Made by a program: the position numbers and the translations under genes. A stretch of 64,000 bases of DNA from a virus. Lineage: Duplodnaviria > Heunggongvirae > Uroviricota > Caudoviricetes. Under the pieces are notes generated by a model. That model was not told where the DNA came from and searched no databases. It saw only the letters and a program-made list of their open reading frames with translations. Positions 6,571 to 62,194 of the stretch are shown one piece after another. Numbering within the stretch: the first letter of the stretch is position 1; each line of letters begins with the position of its first letter. The stretch lies in the IMG/VR virus record IMGVR_UViG_3300031718_000177. One strand, written 5' to 3'.

Positions 6571-6774
6571 TTAGTCGTCTTCGTCTTCGTCCTCTTCGTC
6601 GTCGTCGTCGAGGTCTTCTTCTTCGTCGTCGTCGAGGTCGTCTTCGTCCTCGTCGTCGAAGTCGTCTTCGCCCTCAGCGTCATCCTCTTCTTCATCGAAG
6701 AGAGGGTGATCGAATTGCTGCGTTACAACATCGTCATCGTCATAAACATCGGAACCGTGACCAAAGCCGTTCAT
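6571..6774 (-). CDS. small extremely acidic protein (poly-Asp/Glu)
   Basis: 67 aa, about 60% D/E (…DEEEDDAEGEDDFDDEDEDDLDDDEEEDLDDDDEEDEDEDD). Own promoter and terminator. The plus-strand Arg-rich ORF 6567..6851 is its mirror image. Confidence 0.55.
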   Translation of the reverse strand: MNGFGHGSDVYDDDDVVTQQFDHPLFDEEEDDAEGEDDFDDEDEDDLDDDEEEDLDDDDEEDEDEDD

Positions 6775-14226: not shown

Positions 14227-14514
14227 CTAGTAACCCCTTCCTGAAGTGTCTTGGTTGACGAAATTGTCAGGAACTTCGTCTTTCTTCAGTTTCTTGAACA
14301 GCAATTTTTTATATCCTTGTAATGCTGCAATCTCCTTGCGTGCTTCAGCAAGGTCTTTCACAAGTTTTGTATTTTCTTCTTGCTTCCTTTTTAATCTACT
14401 CTGGGCAAGTACAACTTTACCTTCGGTAAGCCGCAACTTTGCCTGTAGAGATTCCGTATCCAATAGTTCATCTATTGAAATACCGGCATCTGAGAGAGCA
14501 CGAATTACTTTCAT
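14227..14514 (-). CDS. coiled-coil protein
   Basis: 95 aa, heptad-like charged repeats. Confidence 0.45.
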   Translation of the reverse strand: MKVIRALSDAGISIDELLDTESLQAKLRLTEGKVVLAQSRLKRKQEENTKLVKDLAEARKEIAALQGYKKLLFKKLKKDEVPDNFVNQDTSGRGY

Positions 14515-16103
14515 TATACATGTTTACTAACTAGTGCAACATCCCTTAGAGGAAGACGGTGGTAAGCCGGAGCACCTGTTCTAGCGTAATAAATGCCGGG
14601 CTCGACTTCATCGATTCTCGAAACTACTACTGTATCGCCCTTGGATAAAAGAGTAGAGTTTTCTGGTTTCCAAGCACCCACAGTATTCTTCAACACCTTA
14701 ACTGTATCGCCGGGCTCAATGACTGGTTTCTTAGCACCTTTACTAACAAGTTCAACGTCGGTTAGAGGAAGCCAATTTTTACCAGTAGAAATATCGTACC
14801 AAATAGCATCTCTACTGCCCCAACCTGATTTGCCAAGACTTTTGACTACTACCGTAGGCCGCGAGCAGTTCTGCGCAGTCGCGCAGTGAAGCTCACGCGG
14901 CGAATTGCTTTCCAGTAACCTGGCGGCTAGAAAGCCGATCAAAACAGCTAGAGCACCTGCGATAATGTATGCAGTATCACCAGGTTTAAGCCGTTGTCGA
15001 AACGATATCAAAGCGCCCACATCATTCTTCAACACCTTAACTGTATCACCGGGCTCAATAACTGGTTTAACAGCTTTGCTAACAAGTTCAACGTCTGTTA
15101 GTGGCAAATAACATTCTGGGAGACCCGGATGAAGCGAATCGTACCATATACAATTTGGACCTGATTTCGTATAATACGCTTGACCGTCCGTTCTTTTAAC
15201 TATCACGGTGTCTCCGGGTTTAAGATGTTGATTTGTATCGTTTCGCCAAGCACTTACGTTATTTCTCAACACTCTAACGGTATCGCCGGGTTCAATGACT
15301 GGTTTTTCTGATTGCTTAACGGCTTTGCTAACAAGTTCAACGTCTGTTAGTGGAATGTATTGTTCGACATCAGCAGGAATCCTATTGCTATCATAGTGGA
15401 TTCTATCACCCGAAACTCTCTTGACCAGAATAGTATCGCCAGGAACACAGTTGCGACCATTTGGACTATTTGCGTCTTCCCAAGTATCTTTACATGTCCA
15501 AGCACTTACAATATTCCTCAGCACCCTAACGGTATCGCCAACTTCAATGACTGGTTTGACACCTTTGCTAACTAATTCAACGTCCTTTAAGAGAATGTAT
15601 TGTTCGACACCAGCAGGACTCCTATTGCTAGCGTAATAGATTTTATCAACCGAAACTCTCTTGACTAGAATAGTATCGTCAGGAACACAGTTGCGACCAT
15701 TTGGACTATTTGCGTCTTTCCAAGTATCTTTACATGTCCAAGCATTTACAGTATTTCTAAGTACTTTAACAGTATCACCGGGTTCGATGATTGGTTTATC
15801 TAGTTGTTTAGCGGCTAATTTCTGTAATCGCTCAACCTCAGTGTTAAGACGCTTAATCTCTCCATCTCTCTGTTGCACGACCGTTTTAAGTTCTTCATAA
15901 CGCTTTTTATCTATTTCAGCGTTATACTTCATATCTTGAACAAGTTGTGTAAGTTGCACTTTTTCTCGATAAACTTCTAAGTAAAGATTTGGGTCTATGG
16001 GCGGTTGTAGTGCGGCTAGACCCTCGGTAATATCTCGGTCAACTGACCTATCAATGATGGAAATAGGCAGTCCAATAATCGCTCTACCTAATTGCTTGAA
16101 CAT
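14514..16103 (-). CDS. leader-bearing repeat protein (6 tandem ~45-aa PGDTV(K/R)VL barrel-like repeats, one TM helix)
   Basis: N-terminus MFKQLGRAIIGLPI (leader family); coiled coil; repeats of ...IEPGDTVKVLRN...LTDVELVSK; hydrophobic segment TAYIIAGALAVLIGFLAARLL. Confidence 0.65.
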   Translation of the reverse strand: MFKQLGRAIIGLPISIIDRSVDRDITEGLAALQPPIDPNLYLEVYREKVQLTQLVQDMKYNAEIDKKRYEELKTVVQQRDGEIKRLNTEVERLQKLAAKQLDKPIIEPGDTVKVLRNTVNAWTCKDTWKDANSPNGRNCVPDDTILVKRVSVDKIYYASNRSPAGVEQYILLKDVELVSKGVKPVIEVGDTVRVLRNIVSAWTCKDTWEDANSPNGRNCVPGDTILVKRVSGDRIHYDSNRIPADVEQYIPLTDVELVSKAVKQSEKPVIEPGDTVRVLRNNVSAWRNDTNQHLKPGDTVIVKRTDGQAYYTKSGPNCIWYDSLHPGLPECYLPLTDVELVSKAVKPVIEPGDTVKVLKNDVGALISFRQRLKPGDTAYIIAGALAVLIGFLAARLLESNSPRELHCATAQNCSRPTVVVKSLGKSGWGSRDAIWYDISTGKNWLPLTDVELVSKGAKKPVIEPGDTVKVLKNTVGAWKPENSTLLSKGDTVVVSRIDEVEPGIYYARTGAPAYHRLPLRDVALVSKHV

Positions 16104-16504: not shown

Positions 16505-16622
16505 TGAAACACCTTTCTTTGAGAAAAAACTGACTGCCTATTATATAGGCATCTCCTTTAATAATTGCCCGCTTCCGAGTTGAACGGAAATCGCGAGGGT
16601 CAGAACCTCGTGTGTTAGCCAA

Positions 16623-16946
16623 TTACACCAACGGGCCACCATCATCCTCAAACCGCATAAGTTCGAGATTTTCCATATACCAATCAATCTTACTTTGTAT
16701 ATTAAAATAACAACTTAATAGATTATGTACACCTTTCCACGACTTTTGTTCTCTAATAGCAAATACCAACATATGGCTCGCGTCAATACCTATGATGTGC
16801 ATATGAAAAAACTTACCTATCTTCAGGTTCCGTTCTATGTAAATCTCAGCATCTTCTATTTCCTTGACGCGATATAACTTCCAAGATACATTCTTGTGAT
16901 AAACTCCCTTGTCATATTCGATTAAGGTAAGGCTAGATGCCGCCAT
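16623..16946 (-). CDS. hypothetical protein
   Basis: 107-aa ORF. Confidence 0.45.
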   Translation of the reverse strand: MAASSLTLIEYDKGVYHKNVSWKLYRVKEIEDAEIYIERNLKIGKFFHMHIIGIDASHMLVFAIREQKSWKGVHNLLSCYFNIQSKIDWYMENLELMRFEDDGGPLV

Positions 16947-17088: not shown

Positions 17089-17724
17089 TCAAGTCGCTGG
17101 GTGCGGATTTTGCTTTTTAAGTTCATCTAGCAGTTTGTCTTGTATCTCGCCGGTAAACTGCTTCTTTGCGTTTGATGCATCAATATTTAATTCTGAGTAA
17201 ATAACATCTAGAACTTCAAGTAAAGTATATTCTCTAGTTCCCTTAAACTTCGTAGTGGCATCAATCAACAATGAACTCTCTTTATCCAAGAGAACTTCCT
17301 TAGCTAGTAAGTTCCCAATAGAAATACCATCTAACGGGTAATCTATCTTATTACCATCAGTTCCCATAAAATTGATAGAACTCTCAAGCCAACTTCTGCC
17401 ATCATAAGCATTATGCTCAAAGTAAGAGCGAATGATAAGTTTATTGATATGCTCAGCACCAACATCAAGTTTATATTGATGAAACGCCTTCGCATCGCAC
17501 GATGTATAATCCGATATGAATTGAGTTAAGCCGTAATTCTCAACTATCTCGAATATGTCCCCAAGCGTAGTGCTTTGCTCTATTTCGCAAAATAATCTGA
17601 GTTTGCTTGTTACATTACTTTTACCGACAGGGATAAGTTTAATTTGCTTGTCTATCGGGTCGAACTCAAGCAATCCTCGCTTACTGAATATAATACAATG
17701 ATTAGTGAAGATGTTATCTGTCAT
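17089..17724 (-). CDS. hypothetical protein
   Basis: 211-aa ORF; ATGA overlap with the upstream gene. Confidence 0.5.
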   Translation of the reverse strand: MTDNIFTNHCIIFSKRGLLEFDPIDKQIKLIPVGKSNVTSKLRLFCEIEQSTTLGDIFEIVENYGLTQFISDYTSCDAKAFHQYKLDVGAEHINKLIIRSYFEHNAYDGRSWLESSINFMGTDGNKIDYPLDGISIGNLLAKEVLLDKESSLLIDATTKFKGTREYTLLEVLDVIYSELNIDASNAKKQFTGEIQDKLLDELKKQNPHPAT

Positions 17725-18314
17725 GGTCTTCTCAACGGATTTCCGCCTCTATAATAATACTCAATCAAATCATCCAAATCATCCAAAACTGTTGCGGCAC
17801 AATCTATTTCTTTGGCGCAAGACGGTTTAAGTACTGTTTTGCCACTAAGAAAATCCTTAAATATATCTCTGAGACGCCGCCTTCTAAAGTACTTAGATTG
17901 CTTTATAAGCTTATCTATATTCTTGGTATGACCGTAGCTAATGCCATCCTTTAGACAAGCGGTAAACATCGCTCGTCTAAACTTATTACATCGCCAGAAA
18001 TATGCCGGTTTGATACGAATGGCTTTTTGAGCATTCTTCTTTTTATTACTTACTATTATAGTAAACTTGGTTTTGTGTTTTAGGCGTAATTTATTCTCTA
18101 TGAAACGGATATACCGGATTATATTATCTACTTCCCGCGAGCGATTAGGTTTATAGCCAAAGGATTTAGTGTCTTTATCAAAGACATAATCGTGGGCGAA
18201 CTCTCTGCAATCGTCACAGTCGAAGTAATAACCGTCATCTTCCGCCCCTGGTAATTCTTCCATCTTGAAGAAACCAGATGCTTCTATTATTCCAATTCTT
18301 ACAATTCGTTTCAT
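17721..18314 (-). CDS. hypothetical protein (basic, Cys-containing)
   Basis: 197-aa ORF. Confidence 0.5.
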   Translation of the reverse strand: MKRIVRIGIIEASGFFKMEELPGAEDDGYYFDCDDCREFAHDYVFDKDTKSFGYKPNRSREVDNIIRYIRFIENKLRLKHKTKFTIIVSNKKKNAQKAIRIKPAYFWRCNKFRRAMFTACLKDGISYGHTKNIDKLIKQSKYFRRRRLRDIFKDFLSGKTVLKPSCAKEIDCAATVLDDLDDLIEYYYRGGNPLRRP

Positions 18315-22637: not shown

Positions 22638-22871
22638 TCACAACTTAAAATGTTTATTCTCGTAAATCAACCGCTTGCCTTTTTCTGGTCCTTCATCACC
22701 GTCAAGGACTTCAACTCTAATAATGGCTTGATAAGGCATATCTTTACGAGAATAAGGGTTCTCGCTCAACGCTTTAACAGCACTAGCGAAATCCCTGCAT
22801 CTTACTTTAAGATAAGCAGAAACTCTACGACCAGCCCGAGATAAATAGACAATTCTAGTGATGACTTGCAT
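22638..22871 (-). CDS. hypothetical protein
   Basis: 77-aa ORF. Confidence 0.4.
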   Translation of the reverse strand: MQVITRIVYLSRAGRRVSAYLKVRCRDFASAVKALSENPYSRKDMPYQAIIRVEVLDGDEGPEKGKRLIYENKHFKL

Positions 22872-23760
22872 TTCTCTCCTTCATTATCTCGTCATAAGCC
22901 TCTCCAACTTCCTTGAATCTTTGTATCGCCCCAGGACTCTTGTTAAGGTCTGGATGGTGCCTACGGCGAAGTTGTTTGTACCTTTTAGTAAGTTCTTCAG
23001 TTGATATGGTTCTCTTAACATCAAGAACCTTATAGTAATCTTTGGTGAGCAACCGCCACGCAGCCGGACGACTAAAGACATAATACCATCCATGTACAGC
23101 ATTTACAAGGTCATCGTGGGCGAAATCCGTATATCCATCAAGAAACCTCTCAAACGCCTGTCTCGTATCCCTCAGATAAGACATTGACAGACATTCCTCA
23201 AAGTTATCGTATCTCACTGAATACGATAATCCTACTCTCAGTAGGATGGTAAATAGCGATATACGAAACCGACGCTGCGTCCAAAACGGCGATATTCTCA
23301 TTCGTATAACACCGGGAACATCAATAGGATTAAATACTGTTTTTTTAATCTTTAATCTTGTTTCTACTTGGTCAATAAAGTATGCTACCGATTGAAATAA
23401 CTTTCCTGTTTCGATGTCCTTGTTAGTACCTAGTGTGAATAATAATCTTTCTTGTTTTATTTTAGAATTAAACCATGCTTTAAGGAATTGTTCCCGACTT
23501 CTATAAAATGTTTTAGAGTCAATAAGAGTAGCATACGCTCCTTTTAATTTGCCTATATCTGGATTTTTGCTCTTCCATTTAAGATTATTACCAAACTTCG
23601 GATGGGTTATATGCCATGCTTCTTTTGTGAGCGTTATTTTGTAGTTCTTGTAGAGAGTATGGATAAAAACAGCACCATCCTTGATTTCTGCCGAGATAAT
23701 ACCTGGATTGTCCCTAACTCCTGCATTACGTAGTAATTCAGCAGCAACTTCCTTCTCCAT
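22855..23760 (-). CDS. J-domain protein fused to a member of the W-x2-S-x-LRR...TALLK family
   Basis: C-terminal DnaJ J-domain with HPD (DYYKVLDVKRTISTEELTKRYKQLRRRHHPDLNKS…); central RISPFWTQRRFRISLFTILLRVGLSY aligns with three paralogs elsewhere. Confidence 0.7.
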   Translation of the reverse strand: MEKEVAAELLRNAGVRDNPGIISAEIKDGAVFIHTLYKNYKITLTKEAWHITHPKFGNNLKWKSKNPDIGKLKGAYATLIDSKTFYRSREQFLKAWFNSKIKQERLLFTLGTNKDIETGKLFQSVAYFIDQVETRLKIKKTVFNPIDVPGVIRMRISPFWTQRRFRISLFTILLRVGLSYSVRYDNFEECLSMSYLRDTRQAFERFLDGYTDFAHDDLVNAVHGWYYVFSRPAAWRLLTKDYYKVLDVKRTISTEELTKRYKQLRRRHHPDLNKSPGAIQRFKEVGEAYDEIMKERNASHH

Positions 23761-23797: not shown

Positions 23798-26700
23798 CTA
23801 TATTCGTCTTTCATATGCTATATTCTCCGTAAGCGAAACTCGAACGTGGTTAGGAGGTAATAACTTGGTAATCTTACCACGACGCATACCGTTAACCAAA
23901 AACTCATCACCCACCTTGAAGCCGCGAAGTTCTTTAGGAACTTCCTCGTCGTAATGTTCAACGTCACTGGCGAAAAACGACAGGCCCGGATTTCCTTCTC
24001 CAAATGACAGTGACCGGACATATAAAACATCTCTTTGCCTATTACCATTAGTAGAAGGTGCTATCTCAGTAATATCTCCGATACAACCTTTACGATTACC
24101 TCGTATAATTCTAACTTTATCACCAACCCCGAATGTTGAAGATTTCTCGTGTTCCAGAAGATCTATATTTACAAAAGCATGGCTTCCACTGCCAAGCATA
24201 ATATCAACCGTTTCTCCACCAATCTTCCAAATCGTTCCGCTTAAAGCACCTTTCGCATAATTTACAAAATCTCCAGCCTTGAACTTGCTGGGCAGTGTCT
24301 CTCCCTCTGCAAGGTTCGTTTCATCAACATGCTGTAAGCGTTCAAGTCCTACTGGTGAATCGTAATCCCAGGATGGATTGCCACGATCCGCAATAAAGCG
24401 TTTCAGGCCGGTAGCAACACCAACCTTGTACTCTAACACACCGTTATTATATGTTCCTTCGCTACCAGAGTAATCAGTGCTGTGAAGCGGGGCATAATGT
24501 CCCTCTCTTTTGATATTGGCTTGACCATTAGTAATTCCTATAATAGTGCCTCGCCATACTGCTACGCCAGGACATGAAGAAAACCTAACTCTATCGCCAA
24601 CCTTGAATGTAGTATAGTTATCGGGAAGTTTGACAAGTTCCTTAAACGGAAAAGGATATCGAGTGTTTGTGATTTCCGTTTCTTGAGCGGCCTGTAGGAC
24701 TGCAATTCTTTCGGCTCCAGCCAGATGCCCAGCATTGTATATGTCGCATATCTTACCGCAGCATGTTCCTTTGTAATCTCTTACCGTGTCTCCGATCTTG
24801 AATTGTTCTTTATGAGGAACAGGCGGTTTCTCTCGCTCTAATTTATCGTAAGGGCAAGGGATATTTACAAGGCTGCCCTCGGTATTTACTTCGATATATG
24901 CCAAATTATCATATGGTCCACTCTTTCCCCTGTTTTCAATACTCCGAAGGATACCCCTGTATGTCTTACCGTTTGACGTATATTGCACCCTTTCGCCAAT
25001 GGCCGGTCGGAAGATAGGTAATGTCTTTGTCTTTTCTGGTTGTTTCGTTAGAAAATCAACCTCAATATAGTCACTAGGGGCAGAATGCTCATACTCGTGA
25101 GGGCCAAAATACGCCATCGCAGTACTGTAAGCCATCTTTCCAAAAGAAAGAATAGGACGATATTCTTTATGGCAAGCACTTTTAGCCATATCGCCAATAT
25201 GGAAAGTGATGTTGTGTTTATTGGTGGCAACTACAAGTTTGTCTACATTGTCTGGCTTCGGTTGTTTCTCTAAAATATCAATGTCGCTTCGATATTCCCG
25301 AAAATTGCCTATTTGTTGATCACCTTCGGTTCTAATAGCAATTATTTGTTCGCCAATATGCTCAAAACGCTTGATGGGGAGCCAACCAGGATAGTCAGAT
25401 TTCGCACGAACCATATCACCAACAGTGAAGGTAATGCCACGTTCATTGATAGCAGTTGTAAGTTTATCTTCGTTGTCTGGTTGTTTCTCAACCAACTTTG
25501 TAATATCAGTATTTTCGTGAACTACGTTATCCGCCAACCAATAACCATCTCCTTTTATTCCAACCTCGTTTCTTCCATCAGGGAGTAGAGTTTCTACTGT
25601 AAAACCATAACCCATTTCTTTACCATTAAAGTGCCTCACTCTATCACCGACCTTGAATACTTGTCCATATTTATTAGGTTTAGTAGTAGTTGGCTTTTCC
25701 TCTTTCACTGCATTGTTAGCCAAGCAAGATATGGTTTTGCCGGTGAGAGGTTCGGTAGGGTGAGTTTCATAATGAAATATAACTATCGCACCCTTCGAAC
25801 CGCGTCCAAATCCTTTAATCTCTTGATAACCAGCCATCATTGATAAATCGCGACGAGCCATATCACCAATGCGGAAATGGACACCTTGCTTGTTTATGAC
25901 TTCTGTAATTTTTTCGTTCGGATCATATTTAACTGTCTCTCCGGTCTCGAATGCAGACCAGCCGTCATTCGCCGGAATAACTGGTTTGGGCAACTCTTCG
26001 TGCTTGGAATAATCGCCTACCCGAGTTATATTAACATCTCCAGTTAGGCCATCTCGAATGTCCGCAGCAGTCAAATACTCTGTAAAGCCATCTCTATCTG
26101 GTTTGGGTTCAGGAGGAGGATATTGGGCGAACTTTGACGGGACATTATTTTGCTTTACAACAAATGCTTGTAGTTTTTCGTATTCAGTTTTCCAGTAATC
26201 ACGGTCTTTCGTCAATATTCCATATTCTCTTTTCCAGGTGATATCACGCTTCTTAAAAAGATCAAGTTCCATTCTGTCAAGTTCCATCTTCGCTGCTTCA
26301 TACGATAATCCTTCTGTATGTTGATGTTGAACATCAGCCACCGCTTTATTTGTCGCTTGTATAACCTTATTGGTTTCATTGAACTTCTCTAGTATAGCGA
26401 AGGAATACCAAGATGATACAGGGCAAAGGCCGCGACAAAGTGCCACTTTTTTTCCAAATCGCTCCGCTATTTCTTTGATTTCCATTTTATTAACTTCAGT
26501 ATGCTCCTCGCCCTTGAAGACAACATAATTGCCAACTTGGAATTCACTGGTTTCACTTTCGTCAAGGGCAAGAAGCTGTTTTTTAAGATGATCGTCTATT
26601 ACTATCTTATTACCATCGACAACAACATGATCCCCGACCTTGAAAAGAGGCGTAGGTTTGGCGTGTTGTAAATAACGAACATTGTAAAATCCACTCAAAC

Positions 26701-27484
26701 CACTTAATTTAGCTCCTGTATCAGAGCCCCACTTATTTGGAGTCAATGATTCTATCTTGTGGGTCTCAGTGGGATCGTGGCCATTGTAGGATAAACGTTC
26801 ATTCCTAACCGTAACTTCGTCCCCAACCTTGAATTCACTACCATCAGACGTAGCGACATTGTTATACGAAACGACACCAACCTCAACCGGCTGGAACTTA
26901 TTCCGTAATTCATCTCCTAGAAGATTAGCACACCTTTTACTATGAAAACGGACGGCCTGCCGATAATCAGAATGCCATGTTGAATCTTTCGTCCAGTAGA
27001 ATACTCCGTCCGCAATCTGTCCTTTTTCATTACGTCGTATAATCCAATCTTGAGGACAATTCGCACCGTTAGACTCTTTGGACTTCTCTAAATTATTAGT
27101 ATGTACGTTCCACTCTATCCCGTTATCATCAACGCAATACGCTACATTACCCATCGGATTAAAACTCTTGATAGTTACATTTATTGGTTCTGAATGGACA
27201 GAACGTAGCCAATCGTGAGTGTGTCTGAAGTGAGCAACAACTTTATCCCCAACCTTGAATGGTTCATAAACATCATACTTCGGATTGGGGTCTAAGCCCA
27301 CTTCCTTACACCTACTATTTATCTGCTCCACAAAGTCAGCAAAGCCGATAGGGTCAGATGGCAGAGCCTTACCACAGGTATAGGGATATACAAAAGACAT
27401 TGGTTTAAGGGACATATCGACCTTGCCGTGTTCAACTTTCCTAATTGGCAATCCAGCAATCGCTTTGACTAGGTTTCTAAACAT
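23798..27484 (-). CDS. giant leader-bearing repeat protein (1228 aa) with 13 or more F-[KR]-[VI]-G-D-x-V SH3/KOW-like repeats
   Basis: N-terminus MFRNLVKAIAGLPI; repeats FKVGDKVVAHF, FKVGDEVTVRN, FKVGDHVVVDG, FRIGDMARRD, FKVGDRVRHF, FTVGDMVRAK, FKIGDTVRDY, FKVGDRVRFS, FKAGDFVNYA, FGVGDKVRII, FKVGDEFLVNG. Confidence 0.7.
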   Translation of the reverse strand: MFRNLVKAIAGLPIRKVEHGKVDMSLKPMSFVYPYTCGKALPSDPIGFADFVEQINSRCKEVGLDPNPKYDVYEPFKVGDKVVAHFRHTHDWLRSVHSEPINVTIKSFNPMGNVAYCVDDNGIEWNVHTNNLEKSKESNGANCPQDWIIRRNEKGQIADGVFYWTKDSTWHSDYRQAVRFHSKRCANLLGDELRNKFQPVEVGVVSYNNVATSDGSEFKVGDEVTVRNERLSYNGHDPTETHKIESLTPNKWGSDTGAKLSGLSGFYNVRYLQHAKPTPLFKVGDHVVVDGNKIVIDDHLKKQLLALDESETSEFQVGNYVVFKGEEHTEVNKMEIKEIAERFGKKVALCRGLCPVSSWYSFAILEKFNETNKVIQATNKAVADVQHQHTEGLSYEAAKMELDRMELDLFKKRDITWKREYGILTKDRDYWKTEYEKLQAFVVKQNNVPSKFAQYPPPEPKPDRDGFTEYLTAADIRDGLTGDVNITRVGDYSKHEELPKPVIPANDGWSAFETGETVKYDPNEKITEVINKQGVHFRIGDMARRDLSMMAGYQEIKGFGRGSKGAIVIFHYETHPTEPLTGKTISCLANNAVKEEKPTTTKPNKYGQVFKVGDRVRHFNGKEMGYGFTVETLLPDGRNEVGIKGDGYWLADNVVHENTDITKLVEKQPDNEDKLTTAINERGITFTVGDMVRAKSDYPGWLPIKRFEHIGEQIIAIRTEGDQQIGNFREYRSDIDILEKQPKPDNVDKLVVATNKHNITFHIGDMAKSACHKEYRPILSFGKMAYSTAMAYFGPHEYEHSAPSDYIEVDFLTKQPEKTKTLPIFRPAIGERVQYTSNGKTYRGILRSIENRGKSGPYDNLAYIEVNTEGSLVNIPCPYDKLEREKPPVPHKEQFKIGDTVRDYKGTCCGKICDIYNAGHLAGAERIAVLQAAQETEITNTRYPFPFKELVKLPDNYTTFKVGDRVRFSSCPGVAVWRGTIIGITNGQANIKREGHYAPLHSTDYSGSEGTYNNGVLEYKVGVATGLKRFIADRGNPSWDYDSPVGLERLQHVDETNLAEGETLPSKFKAGDFVNYAKGALSGTIWKIGGETVDIMLGSGSHAFVNIDLLEHEKSSTFGVGDKVRIIRGNRKGCIGDITEIAPSTNGNRQRDVLYVRSLSFGEGNPGLSFFASDVEHYDEEVPKELRGFKVGDEFLVNGMRRGKITKLLPPNHVRVSLTENIAYERRI

Positions 27485-29613: not shown

Positions 29614-30303
29614 TCAATCCTTTGGCGTCTCTCTTTCTGCTTGTTCCCAAAACTCTTTATCTCTACCGAAGGGCTTACCATTGGCTTCCCAAATGTAATA
29701 CGCTTTTTCTCTTATCTTCGGTATTAAGGGATTAACAAGGCGATCCCAGTTTAGTTTATACTGCATATGCCATTGCCAACTGTATTTAGTGGTAAAAAGT
29801 GCATGTCCTGTTTTGAGTGGCGGATCGTTGTTGAGTTCAGTACAGCCGCCAAGGAACTTGTGCAGAGCCGGAACGGAAGCTGAAAAGTATATCGAAGCTC
29901 CGCACGCTGTATCAAAATCACCAACAGGATGATACAATCCAGCTTTCAATAAAGCAGTATATACTGACCTACGTAATAGTGAAGAACGCCACCAAGCGGG
30001 TACATCTATCGCTATCATGTATGTCTGTTTACCACTCGTTCCTAAAAGGTGAGCTACATTGAACACACTCCTATTTCTAAGTCCAAGTCGCTCTTCTGCT
30101 TCCCTAACGAGTCTTACAGAACTATCTGGATTAGCCGAAGCGTATCCTAAAAATATTCTTTTTTCTGCGCCATCCCATATGCTAAGGAAGCCCTCGCGAC
30201 AAAGGCTATAGGCACCGTGATAATCAACAACTCGCTTATATAGTCCCCCATGTTGAGCCAAATTACTGTCTATAAATGGAACCTCTATATCAATAGCATT
30301 CAT
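29614..30303 (-). CDS. member of the W-x2-S-x-LRR...TALLK paralog family
   Basis: IDVPAWWRSSLLRRSVYTALLKAGLYH; the upstream LVREAEERLGLRNRSVF block aligns with 49032..49607 and 32792..33358. Confidence 0.55.
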   Translation of the reverse strand: MNAIDIEVPFIDSNLAQHGGLYKRVVDYHGAYSLCREGFLSIWDGAEKRIFLGYASANPDSSVRLVREAEERLGLRNRSVFNVAHLLGTSGKQTYMIAIDVPAWWRSSLLRRSVYTALLKAGLYHPVGDFDTACGASIYFSASVPALHKFLGGCTELNNDPPLKTGHALFTTKYSWQWHMQYKLNWDRLVNPLIPKIREKAYYIWEANGKPFGRDKEFWEQAERETPKD

Positions 30304-31477: not shown

Positions 31478-32518
31478 TTACTCGGCAACTTTCTTTTCTG
31501 GTTTCGCCAGATGATGACGTGGAACATTATTTCCATCCAACTTTACACTGGCATCGTTTAATATCAAGGGCAAACCATTACCGCTACCGCCGATAACAAT
31601 GATTTTCGCATTCGGAGAGTCGGCTAACAGTGTAGTGGCTTCAATGCCCTTCCACAATAGCAACTTGTCGCTAATGCCTTCCATAACAATCTTCTGGAAC
31701 TTCTGAATGCCGTTGGCTTCAATAACCTTACGGTCAGCTTCAAGAGATTCTTTCTTCAAGCGGAAAGTCATCGCTTGAGCCTCTTGATCGGCACTAACTT
31801 TCTTTTCGATCGCTATCTTTACAGTATCGGGAACATCTACTTTACCAATTAGGACTTCTGGCACAGAGATAACTTCAGTCGGAGCATCCTTATATCGCTC
31901 GACAATCTTTCTAACTTCCGCGTCTATATTCTTCTTGATGGTTTCTGCTAATTCTCCACGTTTGCCGCCAGTGGTAACATCACTCGAATAACATTCATGG
32001 TCGGTATATTTCGCAACAGCATCGGTTACAGCACTGCGAGCGGCCGGACGCACTAGTTTATCAATATACTCGCTGCCGAAGTTCTCATAAACCCACGGAG
32101 CAGAAGATTCTACGAGCCGATAGGGAATGCTAATTTCAAGATGCATTTGCATACCGTTGCTACTCATAGCAATAACGGAATCATTCCCTGGCTTTGCTCC
32201 CTCATTATCGTTCGGACTCATACGATAGTTGTCGGTTCTCACGGACATTTCATCCACAAAACAAAGCGGGTTGATTAAGTGCAATCCAGCGTGCAATGGC
32301 TCGTGATAGACATGCCCAAACAGCACTTGAACAGCCGTGTTACCGGCTTTAACAGTTACAATGCCTGATAAGAGACACAATAAGAATCCGAAACCAGCAG
32401 CACCTACCGCATACTTCCTGAGTGGAACAGCCCCTTTTGCACCTTGCGGAGCAAGGAAACGAATCGCAGCATATGCGAAAGCCGCACAACAAAGAACGAA
32501 AAAGCCGAGCCAAAACAT
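31478..32518 (-). CDS. SPFH/band-7 (prohibitin/HflKC-like) membrane protein
   Basis: N-terminal TM, then an SPFH core with a coiled-coil tail (AQAMTFRLKKESLEADRKVIEANGIQKF…; …NAKIIVIGGSG). Confidence 0.65.
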   Translation of the reverse strand: MFWLGFFVLCCAAFAYAAIRFLAPQGAKGAVPLRKYAVGAAGFGFLLCLLSGIVTVKAGNTAVQVLFGHVYHEPLHAGLHLINPLCFVDEMSVRTDNYRMSPNDNEGAKPGNDSVIAMSSNGMQMHLEISIPYRLVESSAPWVYENFGSEYIDKLVRPAARSAVTDAVAKYTDHECYSSDVTTGGKRGELAETIKKNIDAEVRKIVERYKDAPTEVISVPEVLIGKVDVPDTVKIAIEKKVSADQEAQAMTFRLKKESLEADRKVIEANGIQKFQKIVMEGISDKLLLWKGIEATTLLADSPNAKIIVIGGSGNGLPLILNDASVKLDGNNVPRHHLAKPEKKVAE

Positions 32519-32791: not shown

Positions 32792-33358
32792 TTAACCAAC
32801 CTTTGCACCGTTCGGCTTCCTTAGCTGTTTCCAAGTGTCTTGATAATGAAATGTATCGACCCAACCGTACCAAACATTCGAGCAAATCGTATAACCTTGT
32901 AGGAATCTATTAAATGCCTTGTTTGTATTCCCCCCGCCGATATAAGGCAAACCAATTATCTTCTTGTTCTTATAATACCTGCCGCCTTTAATAATAGCAG
33001 ACAAAAGGCTCATTCGTAACGGCGATCTTCGCCAAAACGGAGATACTTTTATTATCATAATGTTGTTATAGCCATAATAATAGTGCGTGTAAGTCGATTT
33101 CTCTTTAAGTTTGAGTCTCCTCTCGCAATAGATTAGTAATCTCTTTATATTGCAAGACATCGCATAAGAGCAAGACCATCCTATTCTAGCTTTGGAAGCA
33201 TAGGAAGCAGCAAACCCCTCTCGGCAGCCACCCATACTAGTAAAACGTCTTCCATCATAATTCCAAAATGAGTCGCCATAAACACCAGCACAAGCTATAT
33301 TCTTTATTCGCAGTGACTTTCGTTTAATCTTCCGCTTTGTTGGCTTTCGCTTTTTCAC
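32792..33358 (-). CDS. member of the W-x2-S-x-LRR...TALLK paralog family
   Basis: VSPFWRRSPLRMSLLSAIIKGGRYY; LLIYCERRLKLKEKSTY block; very basic N-terminus. Confidence 0.55.
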   Translation of the reverse strand: MKKRKPTKRKIKRKSLRIKNIACAGVYGDSFWNYDGRRFTSMGGCREGFAASYASKARIGWSCSYAMSCNIKRLLIYCERRLKLKEKSTYTHYYYGYNNIMIIKVSPFWRRSPLRMSLLSAIIKGGRYYKNKKIIGLPYIGGGNTNKAFNRFLQGYTICSNVWYGWVDTFHYQDTWKQLRKPNGAKVG

Positions 33359-36917: not shown

Positions 36918-38861
36918 TTAATTTGCGATCCTTTCTTTAGCTTTAGCTGCGTGAGCTAAAAGGTTCTCTGCAACTGCTTCCCCGCTACCATATTCCTCGC
37001 CATCTTCATCGTCCAAAAGATAGTGATAACATCCGTCACTATAAACTCCCGCACATTTAGACACGGTAAAGACACCTTTTTCTTGGAGAGATAACGCCCC
37101 TTCATGTAAAGGAGATTTCATCATTAAGACCCGACTGCCCCTCATATACTTGGGCGGCTCAGTAGGCATACTTTTCATCTGCATCAAATATTTTTCTTCT
37201 ATTCTCTTCTTCGAAACCTCTCCATTTTCTTCACCTTTGTATGCCACAGTATACCAGGGTAAGTTTACAGCATCATAAAAATAATCAAGCACACAACCAA
37301 CTGGCACTACTATGTCTGCTGGAGTAGTCACGCTCCATATAGGGTTGTAAACGTAGCTACCTATCTTGAACTTAGGTTCGGACTTTACAAAAGTTTCAGG
37401 TCGGGACTTATGCTCATGTTCATCATCTATCGTTTCTTCGGCCCCCGGCTTACCTTTATTGACCCACTCGGCAAAATCTTCGTGTGATTTAGTTACTTCC
37501 TTTGGCTTCGTATCAGACAAAAGATATTCCGCAATACCAGTGTATACAGGACGATTGTTTACATTCACAAGATCATAATAAAAATCGCCATTTTCAACAT
37601 ATGATTTTGATACTTTTCCAAATCCCACTACTGGATATCGCTTAGAAGGAAGAATATAAACTCTCTCACCAACTTGGAACTTCATCCTTCTACCAGTAGT
37701 TAAATAATCCGTTAAATAATCCGCACTAAAAAGCCAATCTTCCGCAAATTGGGCTCCCTTAGAAAGCAATCGACCCTTAACATCCCTAACTTTATAGTAG
37801 TAATCTCCCTCTATGTCCCCACCGCCTATACCTATATATTCTCTTTCTGCCACTAGGCCAACATTAGATTCGTCTTTATCAAGTTGAGAAGCATGAACGC
37901 ATACTCTATCTCCGATCTTAAACTTGGGCTCCCCCATCAAGGTAAGATTATCTTCTCGGACGGAACTTGGGAGTAATCGGCCATCATCATCTTTAACTGT
38001 ATAATAATTCTTCCCATCATTATGATGTCCTTTTACAACTATTCCAAATTGGGATTCAGGATATCCTGCCGTTGGACTAACCATAACTCTATCGCCTACC
38101 TTAAACTTGAACTCATCTTCCGCTTCACTGGTAATAATGGATGGCCGAGGAATATGCACAAGTTCATGTAACTTAAAGTTTAAGCCACCAATAATATCAG
38201 AAAGCTCACTCGCATCACGAGTATGAGCAACAGCATTCACAAGGTTCGCGATACCTTGACTACGTTTTGCTTCTTCATATTTCCTATATGCTCCGGTCAA
38301 GTCCGAAAGAAGAAGATTGATATCATTTTCTGACCAAGTATTACATACCTGCATTACAAAACGACCAAGGGCAATCGTAACTGCTCGTCGTTTGTTGTAA
38401 TTCTCTTTGTAGAGACATCTTATTGTAAAAGTATAGGCTTTACCATGATGCTCGTAGGAATAGTCCTTCTTAGCTTCAACTGGATTCTCTTTGTAAGTTT
38501 GAGGAACAGTTAGAATAACTTGAAACTTGCCACCCTTAGGCAGAATACCATTAGGGTTCATCGCCGATAGGTTTCGATAATCCTTGCGACGATTATGCCG
38601 AACTGAGACGCCCCAACCACTCATAAAGAGAGTATCAAGGTTGAGAACTTCGCGAATCCTCTCGCTATACTTGTAGTAATTAGCACTGCGAGCGTTCTGC
38701 CAAAGCGAATTATCCCGCCTCAACGATTTAAGCGTATGTTTCGCTAGTTCAATACGTCCGCGTTCATATGGGCTACAATTCGTTGGGTCTTGTTCAGCCA
38801 ATTCACGCAACGTTGTCAAAGTTTCAACGCTATTTGTCATCGTTCTTTTCCTTCGGTTCAT
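36918..38861 (-). CDS. large protein with four (F/K)K(V/I)GDRV SH3/KOW-like repeats
   Basis: 647 aa; FKFKVGDRVMVSP, PKFKIGDRVCVHAS, MKFQVGERVYILPS, PKFKIGSYVYNP. Confidence 0.6.
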   Translation of the reverse strand: MNRRKRTMTNSVETLTTLRELAEQDPTNCSPYERGRIELAKHTLKSLRRDNSLWQNARSANYYKYSERIREVLNLDTLFMSGWGVSVRHNRRKDYRNLSAMNPNGILPKGGKFQVILTVPQTYKENPVEAKKDYSYEHHGKAYTFTIRCLYKENYNKRRAVTIALGRFVMQVCNTWSENDINLLLSDLTGAYRKYEEAKRSQGIANLVNAVAHTRDASELSDIIGGLNFKLHELVHIPRPSIITSEAEDEFKFKVGDRVMVSPTAGYPESQFGIVVKGHHNDGKNYYTVKDDDGRLLPSSVREDNLTLMGEPKFKIGDRVCVHASQLDKDESNVGLVAEREYIGIGGGDIEGDYYYKVRDVKGRLLSKGAQFAEDWLFSADYLTDYLTTGRRMKFQVGERVYILPSKRYPVVGFGKVSKSYVENGDFYYDLVNVNNRPVYTGIAEYLLSDTKPKEVTKSHEDFAEWVNKGKPGAEETIDDEHEHKSRPETFVKSEPKFKIGSYVYNPIWSVTTPADIVVPVGCVLDYFYDAVNLPWYTVAYKGEENGEVSKKRIEEKYLMQMKSMPTEPPKYMRGSRVLMMKSPLHEGALSLQEKGVFTVSKCAGVYSDGCYHYLLDDEDGEEYGSGEAVAENLLAHAAKAKERIAN

Positions 38862-45627: not shown

Positions 45628-46236
45628 TTATTCCATATGCAAAGTGAAGTAGTACTTATTACTGTGCTCCCTAATCATATTATCGTGTTTAAGATGATTT
45701 AGGGTTTCGCGAATGTGACCGTCTTCTACCATGTTGTCGTATTTTTGTTTTACTCGCTTACATATTGTTTCGTATGAAACACCTGGATTATGCGTCAAAA
45801 AGTTACAAATAAAGTAGTTAAGAGAAATCCCTATTTCTTCAATTTCCTCATCAATTTCATCTTCCTTACAATCTAAGCACAATTTTAACTTACTTATATC
45901 CAATTGGAAGTTTTCGCAGCAACTACGGCATATCTGTATCGGCCCGCCACAACTATCACATTCTAGTCCCTGATAGCTACCATACTTTTTGTCAAAACAT
46001 ACGCGACACGGAATACCAATATCCTTAGCCCATAGTTCGCGGTTTAACGCTCGGTGTTCCTTAACAGTCCATTTCGCAGGTAAATCTAATGCGAACACAT
46101 AGTCATCGCGTTCTAGACCGGGAGGATCAACTTTATGGATAGATGGCTCTAGACCATGACTTCTGCATATCTCAATTGTACGACTATAAGCCCCGCAATT
46201 GCAATCAGGGCCGCACACGTCAAACTTTTTCCGCAT
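45628..46236 (-). CDS. Cys-rich (multi zinc-finger) protein beginning MRKKFD
   Basis: 202 aa; several CxxC pairs; shares a 45-nt 5' repeat with 46496..46711. Confidence 0.5.
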   Translation of the reverse strand: MRKKFDVCGPDCNCGAYSRTIEICRSHGLEPSIHKVDPPGLERDDYVFALDLPAKWTVKEHRALNRELWAKDIGIPCRVCFDKKYGSYQGLECDSCGGPIQICRSCCENFQLDISKLKLCLDCKEDEIDEEIEEIGISLNYFICNFLTHNPGVSYETICKRVKQKYDNMVEDGHIRETLNHLKHDNMIREHSNKYYFTLHME

Positions 46237-46283: not shown

Positions 46284-46499
46284 CTACCTGATACCGAACA
46301 ACGCACGTTGTTGCCGAGATATCTCTTCGTTACGTTTTCGGTTACGTTCTCTTTGTTCCGCACGCCTATCAGCATCTCTAAGTGCTTCTGCCAATTCGTG
46401 TCCGCTTAACCCTTCATTTCTTAAACTGTTTATAAAATCTATCCTATCGGCAAGTGCCTCAAGTTGGCTAGCTTCTTCATCAGTAATTTCTCTGCTCAT
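46284..46499 (-). CDS. hypothetical protein
   Basis: 71 aa, charged helical. Confidence 0.4.
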   Translation of the reverse strand: MSREITDEEASQLEALADRIDFINSLRNEGLSGHELAEALRDADRRAEQRERNRKRNEEISRQQRALFGIR

Positions 46500-46711
46500 C
46501 GTTCAATCCTTCTTCTCGCGTTATCTGAATTGTAAAGATGCCATTGACGTTCTAGCCATTCTTTATACTTTTCATCTTCATAAACTTTATGTAGCGTATT
46601 ATATCGCCGTTCTGGGCTGGTAGCAATCAATTCATCCTCAAACTTAGCTAAATCATTGGCATTTGGTCTGGTCATTTTGTTTTTATCCGCACAGTCAAAC
46701 TTTTTCCGCAT
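46496..46711 (-). CDS. hypothetical protein beginning MRKKFD
   Basis: 71 aa; same 5' repeat as 45628..46236. Confidence 0.4.
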   Translation of the reverse strand: MRKKFDCADKNKMTRPNANDLAKFEDELIATSPERRYNTLHKVYEDEKYKEWLERQWHLYNSDNARRRIER

Positions 46712-49031: not shown

Positions 49032-49607
49032 TTAACTTTCCTTTGGTTCGTACAAGGTTCCCCAACGCTCTTTCTGTCCCTGCATATAACACTTCCAATT
49101 AGCGCGACTGGTGAATGTTAGCGTAGAAGCTGTTTTACCAGATAAAAACATTTCTAGGGCAGGATACGATCCCCAAAAATAACCAGCTTTACACGCATAC
49201 CTGAAAGGCAATCTTGTATGCTGGTAGCCACTTTTCAACAAGGCAGTAAATACACCCTTCCGCAGCATTGATTGCATCCAGAAATCGGCTACATGGATAC
49301 TCAGTACAGTTATAGGTTTGTGTATACCGCACTTCAATTTCACCAATAAGAAGGTAGTTTTGTCTTTAAGGTTTAGTTTCTTTTCTGCGTGAACAATAAG
49401 ACGAATAACTCTTTGTGGATTTTTCCCCCCGTAGGTAAAATATATATCGGGGTTATCAAAGTGACTATGAAATGTTTCTCTACAATGGAAGATAAATAAC
49501 GAGTTTTCAAGCGAAGTACAAAACCGTCCCCACTTTCGTATGTCGGCCGCCATATATGCTACGTTCTTTTCGGTGATTTCTAGTTTGGAGAAGGGAGACC
49601 ACATCAC
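49032..49607 (-). CDS. member of the W-x2-S-x-LRR...TALLK paralog family
   Basis: IHVADFWMQSMLRKGVFTALLKSGYQH; RLIVHAEKKLNLKDKTTF block. Confidence 0.55.
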   Translation of the reverse strand: MMWSPFSKLEITEKNVAYMAADIRKWGRFCTSLENSLFIFHCRETFHSHFDNPDIYFTYGGKNPQRVIRLIVHAEKKLNLKDKTTFLLVKLKCGIHKPITVLSIHVADFWMQSMLRKGVFTALLKSGYQHTRLPFRYACKAGYFWGSYPALEMFLSGKTASTLTFTSRANWKCYMQGQKERWGTLYEPKES

Positions 49608-60290: not shown

Positions 60291-60602
60291 CTATTGTAGA
60301 AAATCGTCTTTACCGTGATATTCTGGTTCGGGATGACGAGGTACGAAGTGGGTTTCCCACCACGGTCTATTATCCTCTTTAACTGGTGGTTGAGTTACAT
60401 GAGGATTACTTGCTTGAACCAGAGATTCAATTCTTCGTAGTAAAGTCAAGATTTCGCTACTAGATGAATCTAGTTTCTGTTCTAGCTGTACGATTCTTGC
60501 TTCAAGTTTTACAACTGGATTTGGACGATAGCCCGTTGGTTCAGGAGTAATCTTCTCTCCTACACTCAACCATAAAATCGCTTTTGTGATATTCCGTAGC
60601 AT
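60291..60602 (-). CDS. short leader-bearing protein
   Basis: N-terminus MLRNITKAILWLSVGEKITPEP (leader family); 103 aa. Confidence 0.5.
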   Translation of the reverse strand: MLRNITKAILWLSVGEKITPEPTGYRPNPVVKLEARIVQLEQKLDSSSSEILTLLRRIESLVQASNPHVTQPPVKEDNRPWWETHFVPRHPEPEYHGKDDFLQ

Positions 60603-60688: not shown

Positions 60689-62194
60689 TTAATTCTTGTT
60701 TGTCGCCAATAACTTTGGGTAATAGATAATATCATAATTGATTCCAGGTAGTAGATGTTGTTTCTGGTATTCGGCGTTAGCTACAAGTAGGTCCGAAACA
60801 ATTTTATCGGCTGCGACCTTAGTTAAAAAACTTGCTTGCTTTATCTCAGAACCCCAACTGTTACCATTTATGTAATAGCTTTTGTTTGACGTATTCTTGA
60901 TTATATACCTCTGTTCATCTTGTTTATCAGCTTTATAGGGCGTCAAGCAATGCGTAGGACATATTAATGTTTCTTTCCCAATCAACTTAGCGAAGTGTAT
61001 GTCTATTTTAAGAACAATATATGGTACATCTGGATATTCGGCGAAGGCAAGGAACTGCTTAGAGACACGCACTTTATCATTTGGCTTAATTGTGAAAGAA
61101 CTCGGAGTTGTGTTGTTTGGCGTGTGAAAATAACCACTCGGTTTAGTATTCGGCTTCCGTTCTTTTGAGTAAATTGTATCGCCTTTATCGACGTAATATT
61201 TATCTTTCTCATTCAGAACTTTAACCAATTCGTCAGCTTCCTTTGCGGTAATTTCAACAGCATCTTCTATCTTCCCGCTCCATCTATAAGGATATCCTAT
61301 GGAGGGCTCAATACAATAATAAGGGTAGTTAAGGTGCGACGATTTAACAACCCACTCTTTTTTGTCTTTCTTCATATCTATAGGGATGCCGCCATGCTTT
61401 CTTGCATTTTCCTTTGCTTCTTCTTCGGTTAGGTATGTCGCATTATCCAAATTGCCCCAAGGCCAAGCATGCTCACTGCTGCTGCCTCCATAAGTAGGAA
61501 AACCAAAATAAACGGGAGTGCCCTTAAAGTTCCATGTAATAACCCAGTTCTTTTCCACCTCCGGTTTATCAAGAGGCTTACCATTCACATCAACCGTGTT
61601 CGGAGTAACCATATCTACTCTAATTGAAATAATTGTGTTGTAAGTTCCCCAAGTAGCATAATAACGTCCTATTTCCTTTTTTGCCTCTTCCTTAGTGTAA
61701 AAAGAAGCATGTTGGAAATCATTTCGCCATTCACCGGAGCCATATGAGGCAGGAGACTTAGAATAGTAATACTTCTTATGCCCAACATGACTCGTGTGTT
61801 GGATAACCCAGATTTTGTCATTTTTGATTTCTATGGCATGGCCGCCGTGCTTTCTTGCTTCTTCCTTTGCTTCTTCTTCGGTTAAATATGTCGCATTATC
61901 CAAATCAGTCCAAGCGTAGCTAGTACCACCATTAAAACGAAGATAAATCTTGTCGCTCTCATAACCGTTATTATATTCAACAACCCAATTCTTTTCTTTG
62001 TTAAAAGTTCCATCGCCCATCACTGATTCGTACTGCTCTTGTGTAAGAGGAGGTATTTGAGAACTCCAACCATATGCACTGCCGTAGCCAACGGGGTTAG
62101 GAACATCTCTTACATAGCCGGGTGGTAAGCAATGTTCTACTGGTTCAGCGTCAATTTTCTGCCCTAGAACTGCTCTGACGATGTTTTTCAGCAT
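60689..62194 (-). CDS. leader-bearing protein with duplicated NLDNATYLTEEEAKE-ARKHGG modules
   Basis: N-terminus MLKNIVRAVLGQKI; two near-identical about 40-aa repeats plus two degenerate copies (ASFYTKEEAKKEI, ASFLTKVAADKIV). Confidence 0.65.
   Translation of the reverse strand: MLKNIVRAVLGQKIDAEPVEHCLPPGYVRDVPNPVGYGSAYGWSSQIPPLTQEQYESVMGDGTFNKEKNWVVEYNNGYESDKIYLRFNGGTSYAWTDLDNATYLTEEEAKEEARKHGGHAIEIKNDKIWVIQHTSHVGHKKYYYSKSPASYGSGEWRNDFQHASFYTKEEAKKEIGRYYATWGTYNTIISIRVDMVTPNTVDVNGKPLDKPEVEKNWVITWNFKGTPVYFGFPTYGGSSSEHAWPWGNLDNATYLTEEEAKENARKHGGIPIDMKKDKKEWVVKSSHLNYPYYCIEPSIGYPYRWSGKIEDAVEITAKEADELVKVLNEKDKYYVDKGDTIYSKERKPNTKPSGYFHTPNNTTPSSFTIKPNDKVRVSKQFLAFAEYPDVPYIVLKIDIHFAKLIGKETLICPTHCLTPYKADKQDEQRYIIKNTSNKSYYINGNSWGSEIKQASFLTKVAADKIVSDLLVANAEYQKQHLLPGINYDIIYYPKLLATNKN

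Follow-up and report, generated by a model that had tools for sequence, protein, structure and literature searches.

A common N-terminal leader, candidate localisation tag, on four otherwise dissimilar proteins of a putative huge phage

The 64,000-nt stretch of DNA analysed here (the window), which belongs to the IMG/VR virus record IMGVR_UViG_3300031718_000177, harbours four open reading frames (ORFs) whose products begin with a common 14-residue leader of the consensus M[FL][KR][NQ][LI]x[KR]A[IV]x[GW][LQ]x[IV]. All of them are located on the minus strand and encode p1228 (1228 amino acids (aa), 23798..27484; leader MFRNLVKAIAGLPI, codons 1-14, 27443..27484), p529 (529 aa, 14514..16103; leader MFKQLGRAIIGLPI, 16062..16103), p501 (501 aa, 60689..62194; leader MLKNIVRAVLGQKI, 62153..62194) and p103 (103 aa, 60291..60602; leader MLRNITKAILWLSV, 60561..60602). 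The gene of p103 lies directly downstream of that of p501, and the four genes occupy three separate loci, up to 46 kb apart. The original prediction, which was made from the sequence alone, had given the same coordinates and the same N-termini, and both were reproduced. Mapping with p1228 placed the window at ~114.7-178.7 kb of the 292,671-bp ENA metagenome contig ERZ27256860 k141_3387926, in reverse orientation; together with 20 kb of flanking DNA, the examined sequence comprises 84 kb (29%) of this 293-kb contig. Each of the four ATG codons is the first start codon downstream of an in-frame stop, which is found 1-7 codons upstream. A Shine-Dalgarno (SD)-like GAGGA, GGAG or AAGGA is present ~7-10 nt 5' of three of the starts, while in the case of p529 the SD position is occupied by purine-rich AAAGAAAGAA only. 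Since the ATGs are the first possible ones after the stops and SD-like sites accompany three of them, the location of the leader at the true N-terminus is secure.

A regular-expression scan of the six frames of the window returned the four known leaders and no other ORF start. In leave-one-out scoring with BLOSUM62, the leaders of p1228, p529, p501 and p103 reached 37.3, 32.3, 32.3 and 30.0, respectively, as compared with a mean of -7 (sd 7) and a next best score of 19 for the 3,322 start-codon 14-mers of the window. An independent null was provided by LR756511.1, a 595-kb 'uncultured phage' that is the sole related record in the phage collection and has 5 of ~116 genes in common with the window (29-43% identity): the 34,769 start-codon 14-mers of this whole genome gave a maximum of 20.2, the high scorers being spurious short ORFs. 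A profile hidden Markov model (HMM) derived from three leaders recognised the fourth with 12-17 bits (17.0, 12.6, 12.0 and 12.4 bits in the above order), and the HMM of all four members gave no non-member among the ~116 called genes more than 4 bits. At least five identities at positions 2-14 are found in five of the six leader pairs, whereas only 4 of 4,465 background gene pairs reach five and none reaches six.

The conservation, as originally claimed, resides in the peptide. Where the leaders have identical residues with degenerate codons, 16 of 32 codons differ synonymously; the codons behind the K/R, N/Q, L/I and I/V exchanges are unrelated, and the DNA upstream of the four leaders fails to align. 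Since half of the silent sites differ and the upstream DNA is unrelated, selection acts on the peptide, and the leader family is both real and selected at the protein level. Pairs of leaders are identical at 4-9 of 14 residues (29-64%), and the identity over the next 86 residues (ungapped) is 2-8%, in agreement with the earlier view that the passenger proteins are unrelated beyond the leader. This view has to be amended for the adjacent p501 and p103, which have ~35 N-terminal residues in common, comprising the leader and a stretch of the pattern ..EP..GY..PNPV (BLASTP E=0.001; the first 30 residues of p103 aligned with residues 1-35 of p501).

Two other kinds of N-termini were encountered in the course of these comparisons. 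On the minus strand of locus L004, a 26-aa ORF with the start at 12710 opens with MFEKFINSILGNKI and scores 22.2 against the leaders, slightly above the null maximum of 20.2; since it is very short and antisense to a 189-aa gene, the match is probably due to chance. Meanwhile, one of the only four background pairs with five identities at positions 2-14 is formed by two nearby minus-strand ORFs (45628-46236 and 46496-46711) with the common N-terminus MRKKFD, which may represent a local duplication or another, smaller family of N-termini.

Residues 2-13 of the leader follow an amphipathic pattern: F/L2, L/I5, A8, I/V9 and L12 line one face, and the opposite one bears K/R3, K/R7, N/Q4 and G11. 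The hydrophobic moment (muH) of this segment is 0.72, 0.63, 0.46 and 0.46 in p1228, p529, p501 and p103, respectively, as compared with 0.27 +/- 0.13 in the ordinary N-termini of the window, and the net charge is +2 or +3 (+2 in both p1228 and p529). The HeliQuest-type discriminant D, for which values >0.68 denote a possible and values >1.34 a likely lipid-binding helix, is 1.10-1.42 for the leaders and 0.85-1.70 for SpoVM. In the AlphaFold2 model of p103, obtained with the four N-termini as alignment, residues 3-14 form a helix of low confidence (predicted local distance difference test score, pLDDT, ~55), residues 15-28 a coil and residues 29-65 a long helix with a pLDDT of 76-80. A Pro- and acid-rich stretch directly follows the leader in all four proteins, the linker being 15-60 residues long, and Glu or Asp is found 2-13 residues past the leader in each of them. 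The features by which a terminal membrane-targeting amphipathic helix is recognised, namely a hydrophobic face, a net positive charge and a flexible linker, are thus all predicted. The anatomy of helix, linker and passenger holds for the leader and is that of a tag, as proposed at the outset.

The leader is no Sec, Tat or lipoprotein signal: residues 1-20 of the four proteins contain neither A-x-A, nor RR, nor Cys. The N-terminal Kyte-Doolittle maximum over 19 residues is 0.23-0.71 in the leader proteins, as against 1.7-2.6 for the transmembrane (TM) helices of the p529 homologues described below, and the hydrophobic run comprises 7 residues in p1228, is interrupted by Q and K in p501 and extends over 10 residues (AIIGLPISII) in p529. 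By inspection, no cleavage motif common to the four proteins was found at a fixed spacing after the leader, either of the type L/I-x-E or of the type S/A/G-x-E, the latter being the prohead-protease motif of phiKZ and SPN3US; p529 alone has I-T-E (residues 25-27) in this region.

In p1228, the leader and a Pro-rich N-terminal region of ~60 residues are followed by at least 13 divergent small beta modules of the type F(K/R)(V/I)GD.V. Matches of p1228 to R67 DHFR/DfrB, a protein of SH3-like fold, were below the threshold, and the AlphaFold2 model of one module was all-beta with 4 strands at a poor pLDDT of 57; an SH3-like nature of the modules is therefore plausible, not proven. In p529, the leader and linker precede a charged heptad-like stretch (residues ~40-100), which by eye would form a coiled coil, and five to six copies of a ~67-aa module, PGDTVRVLRN.V.A...GD..V...Y...LPL.DVELV; a 240-bp DNA tandem repeat is found at 15246-15816 of the window. 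Repeat 5 holds an insertion of ~35 residues with the TM-like segment AYIIAGALAVLIGFLAARLL, a feature that is odd amid a repeat array; the TM-like hydrophobic stretch (residues 374-399, PGDTAYIIAGALAVLIGFLAARLLES; 14907..14984, minus strand) has a Kyte-Doolittle 19-residue maximum of 2.21. A frameshift artefact was ruled out as the source of the insertion because the other two frames are closed, and the segment is thus genuinely encoded. The p501 protein carries, behind a Pro-rich linker, ~5 copies of a ~60-aa repeat, W.V...Y...W...A.(F/Y)(L/Y)T.EEA, and has no match in Pfam, PHROG, NCBIfam or PDB. Finally, p103 is hardly more than the tag, a disordered linker and a long helix with a disordered tail.

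Both p1228 and p529 are built of small beta-type modules with GD.V, their mutual similarity being not significant (E ~0.2). A fifth protein with FK(V/I)GD modules (36918-38861) has no leader, hence the tag is not simply co-inherited with this module. The p529 modules also contain the strand VL(R/K)N.V.A(W/L) at residues ~113-121, 193-201, 277-285, 356-364 and 469-477 (14673-15767, minus strand), which resembles ML(R/K)NI.KAI of the leaders. Derivation of the leader from this VLRN.V.A strand was considered and rejected, as the repeat HMM gave the leaders at most 0.3 bits, no better than other N-termini.

Database searches retrieved few relatives. In a database of 5.8 billion proteins, p1228 and p501 matched only themselves, the query for p501 being a chimera with p103, and p529, p501 and p103 are singleton clusters in the protein database. 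Neither megablast nor tblastn found relatives of p1228 and p501 among 50,697 phage records, and no loci related to p1228, p501 or the AAA ATPase were found in IMG/VR. The N-termini of the four proteins had no covering match in Pfam, PHROGs and NCBIfam, and sequence searches of PDB with the three long passengers and the leader profile revealed nothing meaningful. The leader peptide alone is unsuited to a database-wide search, as unseen members with 12-17 bits would correspond to E-values of 1e3-5e4 at that size. A 38-bit leader DNA pattern had 0 matches in IMG/VR, 4 in JGI metagenomes and 6 in GTDB genomes, and two looser patterns gave 17 matches in IMG/VR; all leader DNA-pattern matches were chance-like: some were very small ORFs in AT-rich non-coding DNA, some lay at internal methionines, and others were ordinary signal peptides or TM anchors. 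No further copy of the leader was detected in the 20 kb of flanking DNA, nor in the whole of LR756511, although its absence from the latter is weak evidence because only 5 window genes have homologues there. The originally proposed look at related phages for the leader on other proteins thus revealed none in LR756511 or in the DNA-pattern scan of IMG/VR, and the four members of the leader family have to date been seen in a single genome.

As for p529, an exhaustive HMMER search of 1.84 billion representatives yielded eight remote homologues, which match the repeat module only and none of which has the leader. The 67-aa module (with the alternative ending ..Y..YIPL.DVELV) belongs to a small uncharacterised family with these 8 representatives (P0005-P0012). 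In several members, the modules are preceded by a TM helix at the N-terminus, by CxxC pairs and by a charged spacer. In four of the six homologues that start with Met (P0005, P0008, P0011 and P0012), an N-terminal TM helix (Kyte-Doolittle 1.7-2.6) stands at the position of the leader, and the order in these TM-bearing proteins is TM helix, charged spacer, modules. The contigs of the p529 homologues (loci L022-L026) are phage-like and otherwise unrelated to the window. Judging by these proteins, the position of the leader would normally be that of a membrane anchor in the p529 family. Moreover, the only genuine N-termini that the leader DNA patterns retrieved elsewhere were Sec signal peptides and TM anchors opening with ML(K/R)(K/N)(I/F)xKAI(A/C) (L005, L033/L046 and L041). 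They originate from unrelated metagenomic and viral contigs, and the first 9-10 residues of the leader match this common membrane-directed onset.

The gene content around the leader genes is of the huge-phage type, with long one-directional blocks, mostly orphan ORFs and a tRNA-Gln. The products encoded include RNA ligase, PP-loop ATPase, AAA ATPase, J-domain protein, SprT-like protease and TnpB; genes for a sigma-70-like protein, an aminoacyl-tRNA synthetase, adenylate kinase and Cpn10 are found in the window or its flanks. A PHROGs scan of 30 window proteins matched none of them to a structural family. As the 84 kb read did not reveal any virion gene, the phage status of the element is something we infer from its gene content. 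The immediate neighbours of the leader genes are the SprT-like protease, the J-domain protein, TnpB and the tRNA. The last, tRNA-Gln with the anticodon CTG (16564-16638, minus strand), is situated between p529 and the next gene block and is the only RNA gene of the window according to ARAGORN and Rfam. An IS605-type TnpB with OrfB_IS605 / Cas12f-like TNB domains (62260-63480, minus strand; phrog_506, E=2e-120) lies directly upstream of the p501-p103 pair, and an HNH-like ORF is found just past it in the flank (locus L002).

The J-domain protein (22855-23760, minus strand) comprises 301 aa with the J domain at its C-terminus, and a gap of 38 nt separates its gene from p1228, which lies upstream. 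The N-terminal domain of the J-domain protein is that of a family of five window paralogues (17721-18314, 22855-23760, 29614-30303, 32792-33358 and 49032-49607, all on the minus strand), which have a domain of ~100-150 aa in common (BLASTP 1e-5 to 2e-24), DUF2934 being detected on another member than the J-domain protein. The product of 31478-32518 (minus strand), 346 aa long, has a hydrophobic segment at its N-terminus and a Band_7/SPFH domain (phrog_200, E=1e-34). Proteins of this type form membrane scaffolds, and the C-terminal domain of NfeD is a partner of SPFH proteins; a match of p529 to this NfeD domain was under the cut-off (E=0.001). A (GTC)n-type tandem repeat with periods 3 and 24 and ~32 triplets is located at 6574-6681; read as GAC on the minus strand, it probably gives a short ORF an Asp-rich stretch.

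Short addresses at the ends of unrelated passengers are already known, among them the capsid targeting sequence (CTS) of T4, membrane-targeting sequences and encapsulation peptides, but the sequence family of the leader is undescribed: no leader of this kind was found in the literature on jumbo and huge phages. The opinion that it matches no known class was upheld by the lack of Sec, Tat or lipoprotein features, of a T4 CTS match and of an N-terminal match in Pfam, PHROGs and NCBIfam. With the membrane-targeting helices (the C-terminal membrane-targeting sequences of MinD and FtsA, the N-terminal ones of MreB and SepF, and SpoVM) the leader has in common a terminal cationic amphipathic helix of 10-15 residues and a flexible linker. 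Single helices of this class bind weakly, and their binding is strengthened by oligomerisation. Of seven known targeting peptides scored against the leader HMM, SpoVM, a membrane-embedded helix, was the sole one to match, with 6.8 bits over 7 residues (IVRAMLG versus IVRAVLG of p501); this resemblance should be taken as a lead and not as homology. The sequence used for SpoVM agrees with PDB 2MVH. The peptide has 26 residues and is an amphipathic helix oriented parallel to the membrane (PMC4307972). Unlike these helices, the leader constitutes one sequence family on four different passengers of one genome, with N/Q4 and G11 conserved.

The T4 CTS, with which the propeptides of giant-phage head proteins are grouped here, resembles the leader in that its 10-20 residues stand at the N-terminus of several unrelated proteins of the same phage, and it acts as an address that is sufficient for the targeting of foreign proteins (PMC5694885). 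However, the CTS is an acidic peptide with a prohead-protease site (L/I-x-E) at its end, whereas the leader is basic and no common cleavage motif is apparent; its genes are outside any recognisable head module in the 84 kb examined. No match of the leader HMM to the CTS, represented by the N-terminus of IPIII, was reported. The encapsulation peptides of bacterial microcompartments (BMC) and the cargo-loading peptides of encapsulins are also made of an amphipathic helix and a poorly conserved linker on unrelated cargo of one element. Their helix docks onto a protein shell, and such peptides are acidic or neutral and of another pattern. The BMC peptides PduD and PduP obtained at most 1.9 bits with the leader HMM, and no Pfam domain of BMC-H/T/P or encapsulin shell genes was found among the 24 window proteins scanned or the Pfam matches of the flanks (84 of 293 kb). 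Sec signal peptides and anchors (L005 and L033; TM anchor L041) have in common with the leader the onset M-(L/F)-(K/R)-N-hydrophobic-x-(K/R)-A-(I/V); in contrast to them, the hydrophobic core of the leader ends after ~7 residues and is followed by charges, with no cleavage site.

The ClpX degron known as N-motif-1, the tag of phage lambda O being an example, is said to have been described by Flynn et al. in 2003 as polar-(T/hydrophobic)-hydrophobic-basic-hydrophobic. It is likewise a short N-terminal tag of phage proteins, either unstructured or helical, with a polar-hydrophobic-hydrophobic-basic-hydrophobic core, and NLVKA, NIVRA, QLGRA and NITKA of the leaders fit by eye this very loose pattern. 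The leader is, however, longer than the 5-residue ClpX motif and has conserved G11, L12 and I14. The existence of N-terminal degron classes of ClpX is documented (PMC12723719).

The leader is most likely a localisation tag, and the evidence as to its destination, which comes from sequence comparison, points to a membrane. The reading preferred here, to which a rough probability of 0.38 is given, is that the leader anchors its passengers in-plane on the cytoplasmic membrane, with avidity contributed by coiled coils or repeats. The 14 residues would form the helix at the head of a small N-terminal module that is peculiar to the phage lineage and composed of a cationic amphipathic helix (~2-13) and a flexible Pro/acidic linker of 15-60 residues, and this module would have been retained on four dissimilar passengers while the remaining protein and the silent codon positions diverged. 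In the infected cell, the tag may hold all its passengers on a single surface. The likeliest candidate is the host membrane on its cytoplasmic side, where the helix would lie flat in the bilayer like the targeting helices of MinD, FtsA, MreB and SpoVM. A lone 12-residue helix would bind weakly, and the required avidity could be provided by oligomerisation via the putative coiled coils of p529 and p103 or by the long repetitive passengers. Both the binding of the helix to the membrane and a single destination for all four proteins are presumed in this scheme. A membrane anchor is favoured because the p529 homologues have a TM helix where p529 has the leader, and, since the signal peptides and anchors at L005, L033 and L041 begin alike, the leader may be regarded as a membrane-directed onset stopped after ~7 hydrophobic residues. 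The TM-like insertion of p529 itself is counted toward the same reading, as is the SpoVM match.

Several observations weigh against membrane anchoring, however. The amphipathicity is moderate, p501 being near the background over residues 1-14 (muH 0.31), and D reaches 1.0 or more in 19% of the ordinary N-termini of the window. The polar or small residues N/Q4, A8 and G11 are conserved equally with the hydrophobic face, hence specific recognition by a protein fits at least equally well. The likeness to SpoVM is a post hoc comparison that spans 7 residues, the TM-anchor argument covers one passenger, with two of its Met-start homologues lacking an anchor, and the AlphaFold2 confidence of the leader helix is low (pLDDT ~55). 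In addition, as 84 of 293 kb were examined and no orthologues were found, the conservation rests on four paralogous copies.

Among the alternatives, targeting to the capsid or prohead would have the leader dock the passengers on the head scaffold or core, after which the prohead protease would remove it and the proteins would be packaged and possibly ejected. Packaging, processing or ejection had been the functions originally expected, and the anatomy fits, since a short N-terminal peptide on otherwise unrelated proteins is just what the CTS of T4 is (PMC5694885). Many fast-evolving orphan proteins are packaged by giant phages, the four proteins here are orphans as well, and an acidic residue occurs within 2-13 positions past each leader. 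Nothing specific was found in favour of these functions, though: a common L/I-x-E or S/A/G-x-E site at a fixed distance is missing, the leader is basic where the CTS is acidic and its HMM gave no reported CTS match, none of the 30 window proteins belongs to a structural PHROG, the neighbours are the SprT-like protease, J-domain protein, TnpB and tRNA and not head genes, and the TM-like segment of p529 and its membrane-anchored homologues likewise speak against them. Capsid targeting is considered unlikely. Rather doubtful, too, is docking to a soluble partner, i.e. a chaperone or co-chaperone (for example, the adjacent J-domain protein recruiting DnaK) or an AAA+ unfoldase or protease for which the leader would be an N-terminal degron, which would subject the four proteins to common handling or a common lifetime. 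The small/polar stripe N/Q4-A8-G11 beside the hydrophobic face suggests a specific helix-groove contact, and the J-domain gene is located 38 nt from p1228. The core [NQ]-[LI]-x-[KR]-A agrees with the loose ClpX motif, and the leader also fits the classic DnaK-binding pattern, a hydrophobic core between basic residues. Yet a match to motifs of such degeneracy counts for little, the J-domain adjacency applies to one of the four genes only, and it is not obvious why a 1228-aa repeat protein should carry a degron.

The leader could also be an evolutionary vestige, a 5' gene segment that was duplicated or recombined onto several genes and has no present function. The adjacency of p501 and p103 and their ~35 common N-terminal residues are typical of a local duplication, the genome contains other paralogue families, and TnpB lies beside p501. 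Nevertheless, with 16 of 32 silent sites changed and both the flanks and the downstream protein diverged (2-8%), the leader is still 29-64% identical, with conservative replacements, in genes at three loci up to 46 kb apart. As such leader-only conservation needs purifying selection, the vestige is contradicted and seems quite improbable. Atypical export, whereby the leader would serve as a minimal signal peptide or anchor into or across the membrane, e.g. for cell-wall-binding beta modules, is very improbable. Its first 9-10 residues are indistinguishable from the onset of the n-region and h-region in the signal peptides at L005 and L033, and p529 has its hydrophobic run of 10; against this stand the N-terminal Kyte-Doolittle maximum of just 0.23-0.71, the run of 7 residues in p1228 and the Q/K-broken one in p501, the charged residues that come directly after, and the lack of an A-x-A site, twin arginine and lipobox Cys. 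Hardly credible, finally, is a nucleic-acid element, that is, a common translation-initiation region or regulatory RNA site, in spite of the position of the motif at the extreme 5' end of the coding sequence and a conserved A before the ATG. Conservation falls on the first and second positions of codons, equivalent residues are encoded by different codons (AGA/AAG/AAA/CGG; TTT/TTC/CTG/CTA), the upstream regions cannot be aligned, and no Rfam family was found at the leaders.

Anchoring on the membrane surface is the reading favoured here. A bolder one, which must be called improbable at present, is that the leader would be the address label of a novel phage-encoded sorting system, CTS-like or compartment-specific, that delivers fast-evolving orphans into the virion or into a phage-built structure; such a label would be portable, and more members would be expected in the other 209 kb of the genome. 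The generality of the finding is bounded by the four copies in a single metagenomic genome. Huge phages nevertheless encode hundreds of orphans, and a portable N-terminal address would offer a handle on where these proteins act, so that orphans could be grouped by destination instead of homology. If the leader is sufficient for targeting, it may furthermore provide a compact tag to direct cargo to a membrane or a large capsid.

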